From: an uncultured Candidatus Saccharibacteria bacterium
GTDB taxonomy: Bacteria; Patescibacteriota; Minisyncoccia; Phycocordibacterales; CSBR16-119
Length of the DNA: 64,000 nt
NCBI GenBank assembly: GCA_964531475.1
Contig: CAZHCS010000001.1
Span: forward strand, 14,712-78,711
Reading direction: 5' to 3'
This document shows positions 1,971 through 27,197 of the stretch, in pieces. Under the pieces are notes generated by a model, which was not told where the DNA came from, did no database searches, and was given only the letters and a program-made list of their open reading frames with translations. Numbering within the stretch: position 1 is the stretch's first letter; the number at the start of each line of letters is the position of its first letter. The translations under genes and the position numbers were made by a program.

Positions 1971-2993
1971 ATGCAAAAAAGCGATCTGGTTTCTGAATCG
2001 ATATATTTCATCGAAGTCGACAAAATAGTCCCAAACCCTTATCAGCCTCGACGCGAGTTTGACGAGGCGCGACTCAAAGATTTGGCCGACTCTATACGCC
2101 AATATGGCGTTTTACAACCGCTCGTAGTTTCGCGGCTTGAAAGTCCGAACGACCATGGCGGTTTTTCGGTAACATATGAACTTATCGCCGGCGAACGCAG
2201 GCTTCGCGCTTCGCGCCTTGCCGGTCTCTCACAGGTTCCGGCCGTCATCAGAAAAGAGCAGGATCCGATGATGAAGCTCGAGCTCGCCATCATCGAAAAC
2301 CTGCAGCGCGAGGATTTGAACCCAATAGATCGTGCGCGATCTTTTATGCGTCTTGCGACAGAATTTAATCTCTCACATGCTGAAATCGGTAGAAAGGTGG
2401 GCAAGTCACGCGAATACGTTTCGAATAGTTTGCGCATGTTACAGATGCCGCAAGAGATCATCGACGGCTTGTCTGCGGGAAAAATAAACGAAGGTCACAC
2501 CCGCCCGCTTTTGATGCTAAATGATCGTCCCGAAGAACAAGCAGTACTCTTTAAAGAGATCGTTTACAAGAAAATGACGGTTCGCGAAGCAGAACGTATT
2601 GCTCGAGGTATTGCCAAGGAAAAGGTAAGGAAGCATGAACTTTTGCCTGATCCAGAAATCGAAGAAATGCAGAATCGTTTGCAAGAATCCTTGGGCACGC
2701 GCGTACATATCGATCGCAAAGACGTTGGGGGCAAGATCACGATAGACTTTTTCTCACGGCAGGATCTAGAAGATTTGCTGCGCTTGCTAGAGTCCGGAGA
2801 GGCAACCGGTGTAGACAAGTTGACACGTCATATCGAAAGCCAGCCAGTTGCTACCTTAACAGAAGCCGCTCCCGCGCCGGCTACGACCGATGTACTCGAG
2901 GAAGCAGAAATGCTCGATGATCGTTCTGTTGAAGAAAAGAAAAAATCAGAAGAAGATACCGACTTGTATAGTATTACGAATTTCTCGCTCTAG
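1971..2993 (+). CDS. parB: chromosome partitioning protein ParB/Spo0J
   Basis: 340 aa. Contains the ParB box LIAGERRLRASRLAGL and a helix-turn-helix. No adjacent parA. Confidence 0.85.
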   Translation: MQKSDLVSESIYFIEVDKIVPNPYQPRREFDEARLKDLADSIRQYGVLQPLVVSRLESPNDHGGFSVTYELIAGERRLRASRLAGLSQVPAVIRKEQDPMMKLELAIIENLQREDLNPIDRARSFMRLATEFNLSHAEIGRKVGKSREYVSNSLRMLQMPQEIIDGLSAGKINEGHTRPLLMLNDRPEEQAVLFKEIVYKKMTVREAERIARGIAKEKVRKHELLPDPEIEEMQNRLQESLGTRVHIDRKDVGGKITIDFFSRQDLEDLLRLLESGEATGVDKLTRHIESQPVATLTEAAPAPATTDVLEEAEMLDDRSVEEKKKSEEDTDLYSITNFSL

Positions 2994-2999
2994 TCACGA

Positions 3000-4454
3000 T
3001 TAGCGGAAGCGGTTCATAAATTTATTGAGGAGGCTGTTCTCGTCGAGATAGCGACGAATATGGCGGCGTGCAAGCGTAGTTTTGGCGGCGTCGAGCCATT
3101 TGCCATTTGGAACAGCTTTTTCGTTTGTTTCGACGACTACAATGTCGCCGTTGTGGAGTTTTGTATCCAATTTTGAATATTTGCCGTTTACTTTTGCACC
3201 ACTTGCATGGTTGCCTATATCGGAATGGATGGCGTAAGCAAAGTCGATTACCGAAGATTGCTCGGGTAGGTCGATAACGGCGCCTTTGGGGGTAAATACG
3301 AAGATACGTTTTGAGAAAAAGTCTATTTTAAGATTTTCCAAAAAGGCTGATGGTTTGGCAACGTTTTTCTGCAACTCTTTGAACTGTTCAATCCAGCCCG
3401 TGTGGGTTTGGTTTTTATTGAAACCTTCTTTGTAGGCGAAAAAAGAGGCTATACCATGCTCGGCCTGCTCGTGCATCTTAGGCGTTCTTATTTGTATTTC
3501 TACTACTCCGCCTTCGCCAGTGAAAATTGTCGTGTGCAGGCTCTTGTAGCCGTTCGGCTTTGGAAGGGCAATGAAATCTTTGATGCGACCAGGTACTGGC
3601 TTCCAAAGACCATGTATGATCCCGAGCGCCTGATAGCAGGTTTCGATAGTAGGAACAATGATGCGCAGCGCGACAATATCATAGACTTTGTCTATATCCA
3701 TGTCGCGCTTTTTTAATTTTTTATAAAGGCTATAGGTGCCCTTGACGCGTGAGCTAGTGCCAATGATAGGGACATTGTGCTTTTCGAATTCGCCCATCAG
3801 TGTTGCTCGAACATGTTCGAGATGGCTCTCGTCGCTGCGGCTTTTATGGCGGAGCAGATCTTCGACTTCGGCCGCTTCTTTGGGAAATGCGTAGGGGAAG
3901 GCTAAGTCCTCGAGCTCGCCTTTTAGTCTCCACATGCCGAGTCGGTTTGCCATCGGAGCGTGAATCTCGATAGTTTCGAGCGCGATACGTTTTTGCTTGT
4001 TTGGCGGCACGTGTTGGAGTGTTTGCATGTTGTGAAGCCTGTCTGCCAATTTGACCATGATGACGCGGACATCTTCGGCCATGGCGACGAAAAACTTGCG
4101 CAAGCTTTCGACATGGCGCTCTTCACCCCGGTATTTGACCTTGCCGAGTTTGGTTACGCCGTTTACTAGGAACAAAACGTCTGGGCCGAATTCGCGCTCG
4201 ACGTCTTCTTCGGTCGCGCGACCGTCTTCGATAGTATCGTGCAAGAGTCCGGCGATTATGGTTTTTACATCGGCACCGAGTCCGGCTAAAATTTTTCCGA
4301 CCTCGAATACATGATTGAAATACGGTTCGCCGCTGGCACGTTTTTGCCCGTCGTGAGCTTTTTCGGCAAAGTCATAGGCACGCCGGATCCAGGTTTGATC
4401 TGTTTCGCTTGGCGGGTTTGGCATTTTTGAGTAGATTTCATCGACGCGGGTCAT
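3000..4454 (-). CDS. rel: bifunctional (p)ppGpp synthetase/hydrolase Rel (RelA/SpoT family), C-terminally short
   Basis: HD hydrolase motif (HDTIEDG), synthetase motif (RIKDFIALPKPNGYKSLHTTI) and a TGS domain are present. The ACT domain is absent. The likely start is MTRVDE at 4454; the ORF-track start is 4496. Confidence 0.85.
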   Translation of the reverse strand: MTRVDEIYSKMPNPPSETDQTWIRRAYDFAEKAHDGQKRASGEPYFNHVFEVGKILAGLGADVKTIIAGLLHDTIEDGRATEEDVEREFGPDVLFLVNGVTKLGKVKYRGEERHVESLRKFFVAMAEDVRVIMVKLADRLHNMQTLQHVPPNKQKRIALETIEIHAPMANRLGMWRLKGELEDLAFPYAFPKEAAEVEDLLRHKSRSDESHLEHVRATLMGEFEKHNVPIIGTSSRVKGTYSLYKKLKKRDMDIDKVYDIVALRIIVPTIETCYQALGIIHGLWKPVPGRIKDFIALPKPNGYKSLHTTIFTGEGGVVEIQIRTPKMHEQAEHGIASFFAYKEGFNKNQTHTGWIEQFKELQKNVAKPSAFLENLKIDFFSKRIFVFTPKGAVIDLPEQSSVIDFAYAIHSDIGNHASGAKVNGKYSKLDTKLHNGDIVVVETNEKAVPNGKWLDAAKTTLARRHIRRYLDENSLLNKFMNRFR

Positions 4455-6467: not shown

Positions 6468-7271
6468 ATGCACATCGTAAGGATCATACCAGCAAGTGAA
6501 AAGGGCTTTGCAGGGCTACTCGAAGTTGCAGCTACGGGTGACAGGATTTATCTCGGTACCGAGCAAGATCTTGGTGACATTCATGTTGCAACATGGGGGC
6601 TTGGCAAACGTGGCCCCATCGTTGCCGTTGGCAACCAGCTCAAGTACTTCAATGGCAGCACTATTTATGTGGGCCTTGACGAGGGCGAGCAATGGCAACC
6701 GGCTGGCGATGGAGTCGTTGTGAGGAAGCCAGAGGGCTTCTACTATATCGACGAGAACAAGGGCAACCGGCCCATCTGCACTATCGTGAACCGGCGCGCA
6801 TGGCAAGTATCCCAGACAGGGGTGCTGATCGATGAGGGCTCGGATGACGAGCTCATGCTGGTCGAATACGGATTCGACGGCAGTCGCAAGGTCCACTTTA
6901 TTTCTGAGAAAGGCTCGGAGGACGCAGCTGCGGCCAGTTGGGCAGCACATCACACAGAAGGTGTCCTCGTCGACATTGGGAATCATGAGGGGTACAAGGT
7001 CGCTCACGTGATCAATAATGGTAATCGAGTCATCGTTTACGACGAGCTCAAGCATGGACCGGTTGATGAAGGCAGTTGGTATGCGCACCCAATTGGTATC
7101 GTAGGTTTACGATCGGGTGAGTTGCGAGTCAGCGACGAAGCCGGTACTCGCCTACTTTCCAAGGGCGACTGGGGCCGCTGTCTGGTTTCAACCCCGACCT
7201 TGCCTGGTGTTCTGTACGTTGCGCGTGAGAACTACAAGGATGTCTACTACTTTCTCGTTCACAAGGACTGA
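6468..7271 (+). CDS. hypothetical protein (GC-richer than surroundings)
   Basis: 267-aa ORF with no recognisable motifs. It has its own consensus promoter and terminator. Confidence 0.5.
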   Translation: MHIVRIIPASEKGFAGLLEVAATGDRIYLGTEQDLGDIHVATWGLGKRGPIVAVGNQLKYFNGSTIYVGLDEGEQWQPAGDGVVVRKPEGFYYIDENKGNRPICTIVNRRAWQVSQTGVLIDEGSDDELMLVEYGFDGSRKVHFISEKGSEDAAAASWAAHHTEGVLVDIGNHEGYKVAHVINNGNRVIVYDELKHGPVDEGSWYAHPIGIVGLRSGELRVSDEAGTRLLSKGDWGRCLVSTPTLPGVLYVARENYKDVYYFLVHKD

Positions 7272-9687: not shown

Positions 9688-10368
9688 TTATGCTCTTCGT
9701 AATTGTTCGAAGAGGAGCAATACGATAATCGTCACTCCCCACAGAAGGCTGAACACGCCGAACAGTCCTTTGTCGCTACCAATTATAAGAAAATTAAAGA
9801 TAGAGTGCAAGGAAATTGCGGCTATAAGTCCAATAACTAAGAATGTTTTCTTTAAAAACCAGCCGCGATAAAATGAAAGTCCGAGTGCTATACCGATCAT
9901 GCCGCTTGCGACCGCGTGCAAAAGCATTGCACCCAAGAATCTAAAGTTACCAGTGAGCAAACTAACAGTCGCGTCTCCGAGTGCGACCGGATCGACTAGA
10001 AAGAGTGCGTTTTCCATGGCGGCAAAACCGAGCGCGCCAGTTATGAGGTATATGGCAAAGTCGACCGGCTCATCAGCGCTAGAGCTTTTTAGCGCGACAA
10101 AGAGCACGGCCACGTATTTAATAACTTCTTCGATGGCGGCCCAGGCTATAGTAAGTGCGCGCTTGTCATGAATGAGTCCTTCGACGAAGTTTTCTAGTGG
10201 CAAGACGACAAAAACACTGCCCATGCCTATTAGAAATGTCAGAAGTAGAATACCGCGTGGCTCTGGGTGTTCGTCGTCTTCGCGCAGCCAGAACCAAAGC
10301 CATAAGAACGCAGGAACAAGTCCTCCAGCCAGAGAGATTAAGCCTACTTTGAGATTGAGATCGGCCAC
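9688..10368 (-). CDS. PrsW-family intramembrane protease-like membrane protein
   Basis: Polytopic membrane protein with EExxK-like (AAIEEVIKY), FxxxE (FAAMEN) and HxxxN/H (LLHAVASG) motifs. Overlaps the valS 3' end by about 25 nt. Confidence 0.55.
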   Translation of the reverse strand: MADLNLKVGLISLAGGLVPAFLWLWFWLREDDEHPEPRGILLLTFLIGMGSVFVVLPLENFVEGLIHDKRALTIAWAAIEEVIKYVAVLFVALKSSSADEPVDFAIYLITGALGFAAMENALFLVDPVALGDATVSLLTGNFRFLGAMLLHAVASGMIGIALGLSFYRGWFLKKTFLVIGLIAAISLHSIFNFLIIGSDKGLFGVFSLLWGVTIIVLLLFEQLRRA

Positions 10369-13622: not shown

Positions 13623-14801
13623 TTACAAACTCCAATTTGGATCTGCGACGATAGTTGCAAGTTCGGGAAATGCTTTGCCACTTCGTATCAAAAAAAATCC
13701 GGCTATCGCTATCATGAGAGAATTGTCAGTCGATAGATCGTGGTCGGGGAAAACGACTTGGGTTCCAGGGAATTCCGCCCCGGCCATTTCCGTTAGGCGC
13801 TCTTTGATATATGTGTTCGCCGACACGCCGCCACCGACTATTAGAGTTGTTGCGCCGAATTCGGCTACCGCATCGCGTGTTTTTTTCACCAAAACATCGG
13901 TTACGGCCGTTTCGAATTCGCGCGCGACATCGCATTTTGTTTGTTCGTCCATTTCGCCGAGTTTTTTTACGAGATACAGAACCGAGGTTTTGATTCCGGA
14001 AAATGAAAAACTATAATCCCCCGAATTGATCATTGGCCTTGGCAAACTAATATCCGCGCGCGTGACGCCGCGTTTTGCAAGTTCAGAAACTTTTGGTCCG
14101 CCAGGGTAGGGTAACCCCAGAAGTCGCGCGACTTTGTCGAACGCCTCACCGACAGCGTCGTCTTTGGTCGCACCGATTTTTGTACATGCAAGGAAGTCGT
14201 TCATGACGACGAGCTCGGTATGGCCGCCAGAAATGAGAAGCGATATCGCAGGGAAGCGGAGGTTTGATATGTCTAGGGTTTGCGGCGTGTTTGGTGTCGC
14301 GGTGATGAGTGTCGAAAGCGCGTGCCCGTGCATATGGTTTGCCGGCATGACGGGTATGTCCCAGATTAGCGAGAGAGCTTTTGCGAAGTTGATACCGACC
14401 CACAATGCTGGTGCGAGTCCAGGACCAGCAGTGACGACGATAGCGTCAAGCGCTGGGCGTTCGATTGTGTTCGCGATTTCGAGCACCACGTCAGCCATTT
14501 TGCCTTCGCGCTCAAGGAGCCTTCTGATCTCATCCGGCCCAGTATTCAAGGTCGAACCTTGAATACTTGGATGATACATATCGGCCTGCTTCAAGCATTC
14601 GACGAAAATCGGCGGCAAGTTTTTAGCGTGTTCTCGCTTGGCCAAGTTAGGATAGACGCCGCCGAATTCGCGATGTATGTCGATCTGCGAGCGGACTACG
14701 TTCGCGAGTACGGTAAAAGTCGCCGTATTGTCCGTTTCGACGACGTCGAGGATAGAAATCGCGGTTTCGTCGCAGGATGTTTCGATAGAGAGAAGCTTCA
14801 T
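13623..14801 (-). CDS. tsaD: tRNA N6-adenosine threonylcarbamoyltransferase TsaD
   Basis: LSIETSCDETAIS, GGVSAN, LGLPYPGGP. It contains an in-frame P2 insert (PSIQGSTLNT). Confidence 0.9.
   Translation of the reverse strand: MKLLSIETSCDETAISILDVVETDNTATFTVLANVVRSQIDIHREFGGVYPNLAKREHAKNLPPIFVECLKQADMYHPSIQGSTLNTGPDEIRRLLEREGKMADVVLEIANTIERPALDAIVVTAGPGLAPALWVGINFAKALSLIWDIPVMPANHMHGHALSTLITATPNTPQTLDISNLRFPAISLLISGGHTELVVMNDFLACTKIGATKDDAVGEAFDKVARLLGLPYPGGPKVSELAKRGVTRADISLPRPMINSGDYSFSFSGIKTSVLYLVKKLGEMDEQTKCDVAREFETAVTDVLVKKTRDAVAEFGATTLIVGGGVSANTYIKERLTEMAGAEFPGTQVVFPDHDLSTDNSLMIAIAGFFLIRSGKAFPELATIVADPNWSL
14541..14571 (-). repeat. P2 palindromic insert AGTATTCAAGGTCGAACCTTGAATACTTGGA (copy 1), in-frame in tsaD
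   Basis: 31 nt identical to 25745-25775. The 11-bp stem AGTATTCAAGG/CCTTGAATACT with TCGAA loop is a perfect hairpin. It encodes PSIQGSTLNT. Confidence 0.85.
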
Positions 14802-14915
14802 CTCGTTAGAAACAGGTCGCGGTCTTTGCGCTACCTATTTTGTTAATTCTAAAAATTTTCATGTAGATTATTGTGATCCGAATTTACTCAGCAAGTGACC
14901 GTGGTTTCTAACGGG
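14802..14915 (-). repeat. leader element bounded by inverted repeats (U element, copy 1), abutting the tsaD start codon
   Basis: Arms CTCGTTAGAAACAGGTCGCGGTC and GACCGTGGTTTCTAACGGG flank about 72 nt of AT-rich DNA. It is homologous to 26525-26639. Confidence 0.75.
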
Positions 14916-14983
14916 ACTCATGGACGACACTTTACATTTCTTTTCGCTTCCTGTAAAGTCTTGGCAAACAAAACGTACTTCAC

Positions 14984-15682
14984 ATGAGCATACTCGAAGA
15001 CAAGCCTCGGTTAAGGGGGATTCTTAATTCCCTGAGGAATGACCACGTCCTTGTTATTACAGGTCAGTCAGGAGCAGGTAAGGACACCTTGGTGAAAAGC
15101 ATTACGTCTGTTGCGCCAAAACGTTTCCGTGCCTGCTATGTCGGGACCGGCGAAGAGTTCCGGCGGAACATGCCTAAGTTTTCCCGGGCGATGCGCAGAC
15201 GTATTCAATCAATTAATGACGCTGGTGAACTCCAAGACCCGCTGAATGCTGTGACGCAGGTCGTCAATAAGATCCTGCATCACTGGAACGGCGTAGATCT
15301 TCTGATACTTGAAGGCTCACCGCGAACGAAAGACGAAGCAGTATATCTCTACAAATACATCATGAGATTCCTGAAGCGTCGGATCGTTCTCGTGAACTTG
15401 GTCATCAGCGACGAGCTTTCCATTAAGCGTATGGAGGAGCGCAATGAAAAAGATCGCCTTGCCGGACGAGAGCCACGCAAGGATACCGCTACTCCGGAAG
15501 CACGACAGGCGAAAGCGGCTTACTACCATGAGCAGGTTGTCCCCGCTGTTGAATATCTCGAAGGGCTTCCTCGAACAGAGGTTGCAGTCATGAGTATTCG
15601 CGTCGATGAGATGTCAATCAGAGAAGTGTTGGAGGAGGTGCTCTGTAGTATGCCAGATATCTTGGAGATGTCATTGGCATGA
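14984..15682 (+). CDS. adenylate kinase-like P-loop NMP kinase family protein
   Basis: Walker A VITGQSGAGKDT. GVDLLILEGSPRT resembles the Adk LLDGFPRT motif. Divergent. Confidence 0.45.
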   Translation: MSILEDKPRLRGILNSLRNDHVLVITGQSGAGKDTLVKSITSVAPKRFRACYVGTGEEFRRNMPKFSRAMRRRIQSINDAGELQDPLNAVTQVVNKILHHWNGVDLLILEGSPRTKDEAVYLYKYIMRFLKRRIVLVNLVISDELSIKRMEERNEKDRLAGREPRKDTATPEARQAKAAYYHEQVVPAVEYLEGLPRTEVAVMSIRVDEMSIREVLEEVLCSMPDILEMSLA

Positions 15683-24784: not shown

Positions 24785-26524
24785 CTAGAGCATCTCCGGG
24801 TTGATCCGGATCTGCCAATCGGGGCCGAGAGAGGCGAGGATGCTCGAGAGATGCGGGTTTTGGAATAATTCGTTCCATTCATTCTTTGCGAGCTTCATGA
24901 CGATGACGGTTTCAAATGCCTTGCCGCGTTTGATTCGGCGTGGGAGCGGGGACCAGTCGGCGAGCATGGTGAGGAGTGGTGCAGCGACGCTTTCGAAATC
25001 GTCTTTTGGAGGGATACGCGACAAGCGGACGATCGTGCCAAATGGCGGATAGCTAAACTTTTCTCGCATGAGTTTTTCTGATTCGTAAAATTTTGCGAGG
25101 TCACCACTTGTCGCGGCAATGATGGCTGGCGTGCTTGGTTCGCGGGTTTGGAGAAATACATTATCGGATAGTTTTCCGATGGCCAGCGCGAGACGGAGCA
25201 TCTTTTCATACACACGAAATGACGGAAGCGAGAGAAGTGCGTCCATGGAAATGACGGCAGCGACATCGAGGCGTTTCTCGAGGTACGGCAACGCGAGTTC
25301 CGTACCGACGAGAATCGCATTATTCGACGCGTAAAACTTTTCGATGACCTCGCGGACTTTTTTGTCAGTTTTGACTGTGTCGCCGTCGATTTGAAAAATT
25401 TCTTTTTTCGGAAATAGTTTTTCTGCTTCTTGTGCCACTGTGTCCGTGCCGATACCGAGCGAATCGAAATTCCAACTGTCGCATATAGGGCAGCGTGTGC
25501 GAGTGTCTAGTACAGTGTTAGTGAGTGGGTTGATTAGTATACGCTGGCCGCCACGTTCACGAAGTGCGAGCGGTGTATCGCCGTCTTTTAATATGTGTCC
25601 GCAATCGTGACAGACGACAGAGCTCGCCAAGCCTTTTTTGAGCGAAAAGAGAAATGCGTGCTTTGATTCGCGAACAGCTTCGAACACTGCGCTTGAAAAG
25701 ATAAAACTTTTCTTATATCGCGCTTCCTTATCACTCATGTCGCAAGTATTCAAGGTCGAACCTTGAATACTTGGAATCGGGAGATATTGTTCGACGATCG
25801 TTTCGAGTGTCGTTGGATTTTCAAATATAAGTTTTGTGTTTAGGGATTTTGCAAGTAGTCGAGCAAAGACGCGCAGGTCGAAATAGGGACGCTTGATTGT
25901 GCGGTAGGCGGCGTTGCCTTCGTCGTGAATGATGATGGTGCCAAGATCGTGTCGTGGTGTGAAAAGAAAAGTTGGCGTCATAACGACGGTAATAGGATTT
26001 GTGCACTCTAATATTTCCTTGTAACGGGCGAAAAGAGTTTTCTTGCGCAAGCTTCCATGAATAATGAATGTTCTATCGAGGTCGAACTTCGATAGATTTT
26101 CATAAAGTTTTTCGGCGGCGCGGACGGTCGGCGCGATATGAAAGATAGTTGTGCCGACCGTCCGCGCCGCCGGTTTCGGCAACTCTTGGTGCTTGGTCAA
26201 GAACTCCGACGGAATAAAATAATTGATGATCTGGCCCAAGTTTCCAGCCGAAAAATCACGCGCGGCGCGGCACCCTTCGAAAAATTCTCTATAGAAGGGT
26301 GCCGCGCCGCGCTTCTCGCGCACTTTCCGTAATGCAAAATCAGAACCTTTGACATCTATCTTTCTTTTCGCCAAGTCGTCAACCGCGACTACTAGTGCAT
26401 CATAGGTTTTTTTTCGTATGTCTATAGACACGATATCGCCGACACTAATATCTTTGGACGAAAAATAGGTGAGCGAGTCTTTCGCGACTTTGTCGGTGAT
26501 TGGTGAGACTTCGATAAGCTTCAT
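24785..26524 (-). CDS. primosomal protein N' (PriA)-like, with degenerate helicase motifs
   Basis: The N-terminal 3'-DNA-binding-like region and the Cys-rich zinc-binding region (CHDCGH...CPICDSW) align to PriA. HIAPTVRAA stands where Walker A GxGKT should be, and IIIHDEG replaces DEEH. It carries an in-frame P2 insert. Confidence 0.55.
   Translation of the reverse strand: MKLIEVSPITDKVAKDSLTYFSSKDISVGDIVSIDIRKKTYDALVVAVDDLAKRKIDVKGSDFALRKVREKRGAAPFYREFFEGCRAARDFSAGNLGQIINYFIPSEFLTKHQELPKPAARTVGTTIFHIAPTVRAAEKLYENLSKFDLDRTFIIHGSLRKKTLFARYKEILECTNPITVVMTPTFLFTPRHDLGTIIIHDEGNAAYRTIKRPYFDLRVFARLLAKSLNTKLIFENPTTLETIVEQYLPIPSIQGSTLNTCDMSDKEARYKKSFIFSSAVFEAVRESKHAFLFSLKKGLASSVVCHDCGHILKDGDTPLALRERGGQRILINPLTNTVLDTRTRCPICDSWNFDSLGIGTDTVAQEAEKLFPKKEIFQIDGDTVKTDKKVREVIEKFYASNNAILVGTELALPYLEKRLDVAAVISMDALLSLPSFRVYEKMLRLALAIGKLSDNVFLQTREPSTPAIIAATSGDLAKFYESEKLMREKFSYPPFGTIVRLSRIPPKDDFESVAAPLLTMLADWSPLPRRIKRGKAFETVIVMKLAKNEWNELFQNPHLSSILASLGPDWQIRINPEML
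25745..25775 (-). repeat. P2 palindromic insert (copy 2), in-frame in the priA-like gene
   Basis: Identical 31 nt to 14541-14571. Encodes PSIQGSTLNT within ...EQYLPIPSIQGSTLNTCDMS... Confidence 0.85.
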
Positions 26525-26639
26525 CCCGTTAGAAGCAGGTCGCGGTCATTCCGCAAACTGCTTTGGTTAGAATTGTAATTTTTACTTGTTTTGCAATCAT
26601 AGATTTTATCGATATCCCGTGACCGCGGCTTCTAACGGG
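26525..26639 (-). repeat. leader element bounded by inverted repeats (U element, copy 2), abutting the priA-like start codon
   Basis: Arms CCCGTTAGAAGCAGGTCGCGGTCA and TGACCGCGGCTTCTAACGGG. The internal AT-rich part is about 60% similar to copy 1. Confidence 0.75.
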
Positions 26640-26676
26640 ATTCATAATGCCATTCTACCATTTCCAGCAAACAAAA

Positions 26677-26699: not shown

Positions 26700-27197
26700 T
26701 CAGTACGTAGCAAGGACTTGTTGCACCATGACCCAACGATGCTCTTTGCGGTCACGTTGACCCTTGTTACAGGGGTAGAAATATGAGTGATAGGTGCAGT
26801 AAATCGGCATCTCCCATGTTTCATTCGGTGATCGGAATGCGAGGCAGCTTCGGTGGTTGGATTCTGTCGTAGGCTTAGCGAGATCGGCCATGCATATCAA
26901 GATCTTGTCGGCGATATCGAAATTGCGACTACTTATAACCGACGTAAAGAATCTGAATTGTTGCCTATCCACGGGTACCATGTTTAGAGCTGCAAGTTTG
27001 CTCGCGTAGTTGCCCGGTTCGAAGGTGCTGATACTTATCAGAAAAAGCGGTAGACGGGTCAAGCGCAAGGGCTCGACTTTCGTCTTGAAAATCGGCTCGG
27101 TTACGCGATCCATCTTTATTGGTTTTGCTTCATCTATACCACATTCCTTCCCAAAAAAGAACCGCCCGAGCCGGCGATTGTCAATAGTCGTGTACAA
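26700..27197 (-). CDS. hypothetical protein
   Basis: 165-aa ORF. The C-terminus is His/Cys/Tyr-rich (WEMPIYCTYHSYFYPCNKG). Confidence 0.4.
   Translation of the reverse strand: MYTTIDNRRLGRFFFGKECGIDEAKPIKMDRVTEPIFKTKVEPLRLTRLPLFLISISTFEPGNYASKLAALNMVPVDRQQFRFFTSVISSRNFDIADKILICMADLAKPTTESNHRSCLAFRSPNETWEMPIYCTYHSYFYPCNKGQRDRKEHRWVMVQQVLATY

Follow-up and report, generated by a model that had tools for sequence, protein, structure and literature searches.

A palindromic sequence at the start codon of a priA-like gene of an uncultured Candidatus Saccharibacteria bacterium is interpreted here as a non-autonomous insertion that resembles bacterial MITEs (miniature inverted-repeat transposable elements). 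It was analyzed within a stretch of 64,000 nt (GenBank assembly GCA_964531475.1, contig CAZHCS010000001.1, positions 14,712 to 78,711), hereafter called the window, to which all coordinates refer unless a locus is named; copy 2 denotes the element at the priA-like gene, and copy 1 a second one at tsaD. The sequences show that the element entered the first codons of a leaderless gene, probably between positions +1 and +2 of the mRNA, and that the 4-nt target TGAA (+2 to +5 of the gene) was duplicated on insertion. The last A of the element and the downstream TGAA remade ATGAA, leaving the gene start intact, while the original ATGAA stayed 6 nt downstream of the -10 box. In the proposed model of expression, transcription would still begin at the old A, giving an mRNA that starts with a leaderless AUG. 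Ribosomes starting there would translate 38 codons through both arms of the element, melt the 22-bp stem, stop at a UAA in the gene-proximal arm, and reinitiate 4 nt further on at the priA AUG, in the same way as operon-internal genes of this organism appear to start. Judged from the sequence data, an origin by insertion is close to certain, and the complete statement including the model of expression is given a probability of about 0.75, with the coupling step alone put slightly below even odds.

Structure of the element at the priA-like gene

Read along the minus strand, the region comprises an intrinsic terminator (26701-26674), the extended -10 promoter element TGGTAGAAT (26660-26652), the 6-nt spacer ggcatt (26651-26646), ATGAAT, CCCGTTAGAAGCCGCGGTCA, a 71-nt A/T-rich interior, TGACCGCGACCTGCTTCTAACGGG, and ATGAAGCTT.... 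The terminator, which has a 12-bp stem with seven G-C pairs and a T run, belongs to the upstream gene (open reading frame, ORF, at 26700-27197) and indicates that the priA-like gene starts its own transcription unit. The former start codon ATG (26645-26643) overlaps the upstream copy of the target site duplication (TSD), TGAA (26644-26641), and is now where an upstream ORF (uORF) begins and, probably, also the mRNA. It is followed by the distal terminal inverted repeat TCCCGTTAGAAGCCGCGGTCA (26640-26620), by the interior (26619-26549), which is poorly conserved between copies and contains two in-frame ATGs (26600-26598 and 26549-26547) and the motif AAGCAG, and by the proximal terminal inverted repeat TGACCGCGACCTGCTTCTAACGGGA (26548-26524) with the bulge ACCT (26540-26537) and the uORF stop TAA (26531-26529). 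The downstream TSD copy TGAA (26523-26520) then completes the remade ATGAA.

The original prediction, derived from the same DNA alone, had placed an inverted-repeat-bounded leader at 26525-26639. The arms are indeed located there (CCCGTTAGAAGCAGGTCGCGGTCA, 26525-26548, and TGACCGCGGCTTCTAACGGG, 26620-26639, on the plus strand; the repeat is 21/25 nt on the minus strand), but the repeat unit extends from a terminal T to a terminal A (26524-26640), and this terminal A (26524) is the A of the main ATG. The uORF was recovered with the same peptide, MNPVRSRGHGISIKSMIAKQVKITILTKAVCGMTATCF, but consists of 38 sense codons (39 with the stop) instead of 40. It spans the whole element (26645-26529) and ends inside the proximal arm as stated, where TAA, CGGG, and the main ATG (26524-26522) give the claimed distance of 4 nt. 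In RNA, the arms of copy 2 are predicted to form 14 bp, a 4-nt bulge (ACCU, on the 3' side only), and a further 7-8 bp (-42.5 kcal/mol, z = -4.2). The stem of the original prediction is thus retained, although the main AUG lies inside it with no more than its A and U.

A family of insertions with duplicated target sites

A search for further copies before other genes, as suggested with the original prediction, was made by scanning one genome per species with the 20 specified bases of the proximal arm (GACCGCGACCTGNTTCTAACG). Exact matches were obtained in at least 117 loci, and 96 Pfam families are encoded downstream; these and all following family counts are among the matches listed. With the exception of one short contig labelled Woesearchaeota, all listed loci are labelled Patescibacteria/CPR (candidate phyla radiation), namely Paceibacteria, Nomura-, Zambryski-, Buchanan-, Sung-, and Taylorbacteria, and "Saccharibacteria"-labelled assemblies. 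Often several contigs of the same metagenome-assembled genome carry the proximal arm, for example in JAGOOZ01 (four), JAENWX01 (three), and JBAYUP01 (three). The complementary distal arm is located upstream in 114 of the 121 listed matches, and these complete copies measure 107-124 nt, most often 115-118 nt, apart from a short class of 78-79 nt. In 108 of the 114, ATG or GTG follows the element directly, and an in-frame ORF of at least 60 amino acids lies downstream in 104, from which it follows that the ACCT-bulged arm is always gene-proximal.

A TSD, TGAA, flanks the priA copy on both sides. Throughout the family, the beginning of the gene is found a second time in the 5-7 nt immediately 5' of the distal arm. 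In 82 of 84 copies the upstream ATG and the ATG of the gene are followed by an identical base, compared to 36.7 ± 3.8 with shuffled partners. If the last base of the 5' flank (T) and the first base of the 3' flank (A) are treated as element termini, an exact TSD of 3-5 nt is present in 83 of the 114 copies (4 nt in 60), compared to approximately 25 with shuffled partners. The commonest duplications are TGAA, TGGA, TGG, TGAG, TGA, and TGTA, usually of the form TGNN, and copies away from an ATG are duplicated as well (CAGA, TTCA, CTCA). Some upstream copies have TTG or another first base, yet the downstream copy begins with A. Together with the covariation of the terminal pair (T...A in 102 copies, C...G in five), this shows that the A of the gene's ATG belongs to the element.

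Empty sites were found at orthologous positions. Both closest PriA orthologs fetched show TAGAAT, 6 nt, and ATG without the element: L118 (70% identity) reads TGaTAGAAT-aggccc-ATGAGACTG directly after a terminator, and L119 (65% identity) reads TGGTAGAAT-cagctt-ATGAAACTCGTCGAAGTC. The filled site in the window is TGGTAGAAT-ggcatt-ATGAA[T...element...A]TGAAGCTTATCGAAGTC, with TGAAGCTT on the gene side. At the same position in another PriA locus (L120, 60% identity), a member of a different family with the arms CCCGTTAGAGATA / TATCTCTAACGGG lies between ATGAAT and ATGAAA (9886-10000), and L050 contains a short form of the element at the priA site. Filled and empty sites of this kind are the classical comparison by which an insertion is recognized. 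The different family, a second one at start codons, also occurs in L054 and in L115, there upstream of the canonical copy; in both loci the tandem arrangement of the two families is accompanied by three copies of ATGAA or ATGAG. Identical interiors occur before different genes and at two contig starts in one genome (L029, L033). In L013, an insertion flanked by the duplication CCTG is nested in a further element, and in L032 a copy sits precisely on the ATGAA that starts the internal ORF of another one. The two contigs of JAGVCW01 (L029 and L033, 1-93 in each) begin at the same base inside identical element copies, which indicates that the repeat breaks short-read assemblies. Features by which a MITE is recognized were found, namely terminal inverted repeats, a TSD, small size without a transposase gene, many copies per genome, presence and absence at orthologous sites, and nested copies. 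Full-text searches of the literature found no account of an element of this kind in CPR bacteria, and this family of approximately 116-bp palindromic, transposon-like insertions is apparently undescribed.

The distribution of the copies also bears on the leader element that the original prediction described at priA and tsaD. More generally, the sequence could be a cis-regulatory leader of vertical descent (a riboswitch, an attenuator, or an operator bound by a protein) in a regulon that includes both genes, and the recurrence of the element at the same orthologs in different genomes (SSB six times, PriA four times, and MurG) as well as the extreme conservation of its arms would suit such a function. 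The genes downstream nevertheless encode 96 Pfam families among 104 proteins, including, besides these three, T2SSE (four times), aminoacyl-tRNA synthetases, SecA, FtsW, the delta' subunit of polymerase III, and trigger factor, which rules out a regulon. In addition, the closest PriA orthologs are empty, the flanks are duplicated, copies are nested or in tandem, conserved interior structure and Rfam matches were not detected, and the upstream hexamer of the SSB orthologs tracks their own second codon (ATGTAT vs ATGAAT). A leader of this kind is therefore highly improbable, and a riboswitch was rejected given the diversity of the gene families and a predicted fold that is confined to the terminal stem. 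The dedicated leader of two genes is replaced by a multi-copy insertion, known from at least 117 loci and missing from orthologous sites.

Conservation of the arms and related families

Pairing between the arms is kept in 98.1% of the cells of an alignment of 106 copies. One arm pair covaries (G-C in 88 copies, A-U in 13, and only five intermediates), showing at the sequence level that the two ends of the element are kept matched, and in the same alignment the terminal pair covaries as well (U-A in 96 copies, C-G in five). Conservation throughout the family is limited to position, length, the arms, and the bulge on one of them. RNAalifold recovered the terminal stem and no interior structure in the family, and Rfam 15 at gathering score detected five tRNAs and nothing else in the window. 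When both copies were scanned with Rfam at E ≤ 10, only weak matches at the level of chance were obtained, the best of which had 23.6 bits (gathering score 37) and was located on the terminator. ARAGORN found no match at either copy and hence no tRNA-like origin of the arms, and a scan of viral contigs with the distal arm gave 0 matches. Within the window, each arm matches only two places at up to three mismatches, compared to 0.00 expected from 100 shuffles, so that chance is excluded; a covariance model of 106 family members likewise retrieved only the two window copies, both on the minus strand (106 and 82.5 bits).

The termini are shared by a wider superfamily, (T/C)CCCGTTAGAAG...CTTCTAACGGG(A/G), in Paceibacteria and other CPR/Patescibacteria genomes, the variant families of which have only the outer 12-13 nt, (T/C)CCCGTTAGAAG(C/T), in common. 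A G+C-rich relative with the termini CCCCGTTAGAAGC...GCTTCTAACGGGG is located inside genes (L013, 1277-1351 and 863-1010; L082, 5268-5339), and one of the L013 copies contains a nested element. It occupies 74 + 4 nt in the RibD gene of L013 and 71 + 4 nt in L082. With the 4-nt duplication the insert measures 78 or 75 nt, both divisible by three, so that the frame is kept, and its translation reads ...PVRS...ASNG.... In L003 (~1270-1405) and L022 (~7003-7141), an extra G+C-rich hairpin, CC(T/C)GCC...GGCAGGCAGG, is located in the distal arm exactly opposite the ACCT bulge, and its GCAGG could pair with the latter.

Leaderless host genes and promoter context

In at least 12 genes of the window, the ATG follows a TAnnnT hexamer, often with TGn in front of it, at a distance of exactly 6 nt (e.g., at the starts 1971, 10368-, 12515-, 29710, 32551, 35378, 50575, 56992-, and 60903-). 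No Shine-Dalgarno-like motif was found before any gene start of the window, and operon-internal genes start between -4 and +4 nt of the preceding stop. The organism accordingly appears, as far as its sequence tells, to rely on leaderless initiation and on termination-reinitiation. In the family as a whole, -10-like hexamers are most frequent at 6-9 nt ahead of the upstream ATG. This promoter geometry makes it very probable that the transcript begins with the old ATG at 26645. A promoter within the proximal arm that would remake a leaderless start was rejected by inspection, the hexamer at -12 to -7 being GCTTCT.

Upstream open reading frames and expression of the host gene

The spacing of TAA, 4 nt, and ATG in copy 2 is that of native operon junctions of the window (e.g., 34788/34793 and 41697/41702), and the stop-to-start spacing is invariant in the family because the TAA lies in the arm. 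The frame of the 5' AUG reaches this TAA in 16 of 81 copies (3.3 ± 1.6 after shuffling of the interiors), and an internal ATG-started ORF of 21-25 codons does so in 53 of 114 (7.7 ± 2.4). The open frame ending at the TAA has a median length of 24.5 codons compared to 11.5 in interior shuffles, and stops are strongly depleted. In 14 more copies, the 5' ORF stops at most 14 nt from the start of the internal ORF or overlaps it (ATGA in six cases). Both copies of the window provide an unbroken path to the main ATG, which is direct in copy 2 and a relay in copy 1. The peptide motifs K(Q/H) and TATCF were discarded as a coding signal, since they are nucleotide motifs that are present in copies without an ORF too. 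Two possible pairings were marginal and are not claimed: interior AAGCAGG with ACCUGCUU of the proximal arm (5.52 vs 4.98 nt in shuffles), and 5' UCCCG with interior CGGGA (4.13 vs 3.39 nt).

From the duplicated flanks we conclude that the start of the uORF is the host gene's own former start, a relic of the duplication that was not brought in by the element. In copy 2 the uORF probably rescues the expression of the host gene. Whether open frames to the TAA have been favored in several sub-lineages, including both window copies, and whether reinitiation is the most economical route there, we would put slightly below even odds. The original prediction had proposed a coupling design in which translation of the uORF opens the stem. 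Stem, uORF, spacing, and ORF enrichment speak for this idea as far as copy 2 is concerned, but coupling would be a plausible by-product there and does not appear to be what defines or conserves the element.

A different function is conceivable in which the uORF is incidental. The 22-bp stem with its ACCU bulge might be a domesticated signal for RNA processing or stability that is cut by RNase III or bound by a protein, which would free a short-leader priA mRNA with an accessible AUG or set its half-life. RNase III is reported to cut the processing signals of phage T7 and the Correia elements of Neisseria. Its reported retention in CPR bacteria (PMC12641178) is in line with this possibility, as is the fact that universal conservation is confined to arms, bulge, and total length, that the bulge is always in the gene-proximal arm, and that half of the copies have perfect arms yet no coupling ORF. 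An RNA-specific signature is missing, however: in the distal arm, wobble-forming C-to-U changes (~2.0 per site) are not favored over disruptive changes at G positions (~3.8 per site), so that nothing places the constraint on RNA rather than DNA. Moreover, processing leaves the ORF enrichment unexplained, and a leader of 12-17 nt without Shine-Dalgarno motif would have no known route of initiation in an organism that looks leaderless. Processing is thus considered distinctly unlikely.

The copies without an ORF path to the main AUG, which make up half of the family and precede essential genes, might alternatively be read by a ribosome shunt or hop. A ribosome loaded at the 5'-terminal AUG would be transferred across the base of the stem to the AUGAA located 121 nt further on, leaving the element untranslated. 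Analogues of such behavior are the shunt in the CaMV 35S leader, T4 gene 60, and the mitochondrial "byp" elements, and the stem would set two identical AUGNN side by side. The TSD fully accounts for the two sites being identical, however, and their second codons often differ at the third base (AAT vs AAA), which excludes peptidyl-tRNA re-pairing. Nor is a shunt or hop mechanism known for bacterial leaderless mRNAs. This explanation deserves very little credence.

Position, orientation, and strength of the insertion model

The exact location on start codons and the fixed orientation could result from targeting or from selection, and the data do not separate the two. Duplications such as TCGA, TCAA, and CCTG elsewhere are too loose for strict sequence targeting, whereas the copy nested on an internal ATGAA (L032) points to some word preference. 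Insertion may be actively directed at the first nucleotides (+2 to +5) of leaderless genes, i.e., at the start of transcription or translation itself rather than at a DNA word. The family may also be built to be harmless there, as it donates the A of the new ATG, has a stop 4 nt ahead of this ATG, and carries a relay ORF in about half of its copies. Both parts of this view are possible yet doubtful; to our knowledge, a target specificity homing on start codons has not been described for bacterial transposons. An invertible promoter switch was rejected, as copies followed by a gene occur in one orientation only with the bulged arm gene-proximal, and the model scores on the minus strand are far above those on the plus strand.

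Conversely, the insertion might be purely selfish and inert. It would land preferentially on words resembling ATG(A/G)A, only inserts in start codons would survive in a gene-dense genome because the start is remade, and uORF and stem would merely lower priA expression to a tolerated degree. The predominance of TGAA, TGGA, TGAG, and TGTA among the duplications fits this assumption, as do the nested copy on an internal ATGAA, the decaying arms of copy 1, and the close relatives that do without the element. By contrast, the occupancy of starts (108 of 114) exceeds the excess over intergenic sites of about 2:1 that we infer from a rough estimate of our own, the orientation is uniform, stops are strongly depleted in the frame that ends at the TAA, and TCGA, TCAA, CCTG, and CAGA among the other duplications reveal that the target preference is loose. 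On balance, we regard complete inertness as unlikely.

Several points weigh against the favored combination of a MITE-like insertion and rescue by reinitiation. About 25 of the 114 copies are without a duplication, and some of these follow the stop codon of the upstream gene. The near-absolute position at start codons and the orientation are unusual for a MITE, and copies could be maintained for a host function. The arms are conserved to ~98% across very divergent genomes while the interiors are not, which would fit a selected structure, although the proximal arm had been fixed by the search pattern. No arm pairs more than 250 nt apart, as expected for an autonomous partner, were detected in ~1 Mb of fetched loci, and neither a transposase nor an autonomous element sharing the termini came to light, with no systematic search for them having been made. 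As to expression, the transcription start is placed by promoter geometry only. About half of the copies are without an ORF reaching the TAA, and a consistent Shine-Dalgarno motif before the internal ATGs was not found in the family copies. Relays of uORFs are not significantly more frequent than in shuffled interiors (28 of 81 vs 21.8 ± 3.7), and the relatedness of the copies makes the shuffles overstate their independence. Finally, the entropy of the codon positions is nearly flat (1.47/1.53/1.65), and the peptide is barely conserved.

The second copy in the window and the host genes

The other copy named in the original prediction (14802-14915, upstream of tsaD) is real, and its unit spans 14801-14916 on the minus strand, before tsaD (13623-14801). 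It has the A-U variant of the covarying arm pair (GAAAC/GTTTC) and two arm mismatches, and it is flanked by ATGAG upstream and ATGAA downstream. Its RNA fold is not outstanding (z = -0.3). The analogous short uORF described for this copy, MSPVRNHGHLLSKFGSQ*, is present and forms part of a relay of two ORFs (17 codons, 5 nt, 18 codons with the peptide MKIFRINKIGSAKTATCF*, 4 nt, ATG). The promoter on the minus strand consists of TTTACA, 17 nt, and TAAAGT (14929-14957), with the -10 hexamer ending 7 nt before the old ATG (14921-14919). The same hexamers are found on both strands at 14929-14959, a palindromic and apparently bidirectional arrangement between tsaD (minus strand) and an adenylate-kinase-like gene starting at 14984 (plus strand). 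Copies 1 and 2 have in common the arms, an ATGA that precedes the distal arm, and GATGAAGCTT following the proximal one; their interiors are not shared.

An empty tsaD site could not be compared directly. In the closest ortholog (L121, ~770-850), the ATG lies 3 nt past the 3' end of a tRNA gene (…tcgcccaCAC ATG), an arrangement which suggests that tRNA processing creates a near-leaderless 5' end of the tsaD mRNA. The start of tsaD in L122 (~2915-3000) is rearranged in a different way: a 33-nt duplicate of the 5' end of tsaD (ATGAAAATCCTATCCATTGAAACCAGCTGCGAC) lies between the tRNA gene and tsaD and is followed by a small hairpin, CCCCATACGAAAGC...GCTTCGTACGGGG, which resembles the element termini. 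The Pfam match of TsaD in the window starts at residue 101, corresponding to profile position 35, and is split into two stretches, which suggests that about 65 residues have been inserted towards the N-terminus.

The host gene of copy 2 (24785-26524, minus strand) encodes a protein of 579 amino acids that is full length compared to its orthologs. Its homologs are annotated as primosomal protein N', and it represents a degenerate PriA of Paceibacteria. The protein has no Pfam match at E ≤ 0.001 and is about 150-250 amino acids shorter than canonical PriA with its DEAD/helicase domains; PF17764 is kept in only some of the homologs. A metagenome scan with this protein returned 69 pattern matches, none of which was confirmed.

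Significance and comparison with known systems

CPR/Patescibacteria are thought to have small and streamlined genomes with few mobile elements and almost no characterized expression signals. The present data add a whole superfamily of small palindromic insertions that has spread through this group. In this genome at least, most transcription units appear to start directly at the ATG, which is the very point exploited by the element. Leaderless genes that survive 117 nt between promoter and coding sequence amount to a natural experiment on how such survival is achieved, be it by reinitiation at the end of a relic uORF, by processing of the RNA, or in some new way. In practical terms, the uORFs and in-frame copies will confuse gene callers, and the repeats break assemblies.

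Among known systems, integron attC sites share imperfect repeats, an extra-helical bulge on one arm, GTTRRR-like cores (GTTAGAA / TTCTAAC in the present family), and a location beside genes. An identity with attC was nevertheless rejected, because the cores are in the reversed order GTTAGA...TCTAAC instead of RYYYAAC...GTTRRRY, and because the elements are dispersed 5' of genes with flanking duplications and do not form arrays 3' of cassettes. The mycobacterial MIRU are short intergenic repeats oriented with their flanking genes, the small ORFs of which meet the stops and starts of their neighbors and have been interpreted in terms of translational coupling. They differ in being direct, tandem-type repeats in operons without long terminal inverted repeats or duplication of a start, whereas in the present family the ORF is found in about half of the copies. 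Rickettsia palindromic elements are small palindromes of reduced genomes as well and are tolerated because the host genes stay readable; those members of the superfamily that share the termini and lie in frame within genes (RibD in L013, and L082) are comparable. The family itself is not translated as part of a host protein, lies 5' of leaderless genes, equally often in and out of frame with them, has no sequence relationship to the Rickettsia elements, and belongs to a different phylum.

Close in structure are bacterial MITEs such as the Correia elements (NEMIS) of Neisseria. These have a length of ~100-150 bp, terminal inverted repeats of ~20-26 bp, a short TSD, many copies, and no transposase gene, and they are co-transcribed beside genes, with their repeats forming a long RNA hairpin. 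The present family agrees in size, terminal repeats, short TSD, copy number, the lack of a transposase gene, and proximity to genes, and it would likewise be co-transcribed, with its repeats forming an RNA hairpin. Correia elements, however, duplicate TA and occur at varied distance from genes and in either orientation, whereas here 3-5 nt, mostly TGNN, are duplicated, and the element is placed to the nucleotide on the start codon (108 of 114) in the orientation of the gene, donates the A of the ATG, and has no known parent insertion sequence. With termination-reinitiation leaders, finally, copy 2 has in common a distance of 4 nt from uORF stop to main AUG and a uORF that passes through a structure containing part of the start codon. 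It differs from them in that its peptide is unconserved and the start of its uORF appears to be a relic of the leaderless gene's own start, the whole arrangement having most probably arisen by insertion.

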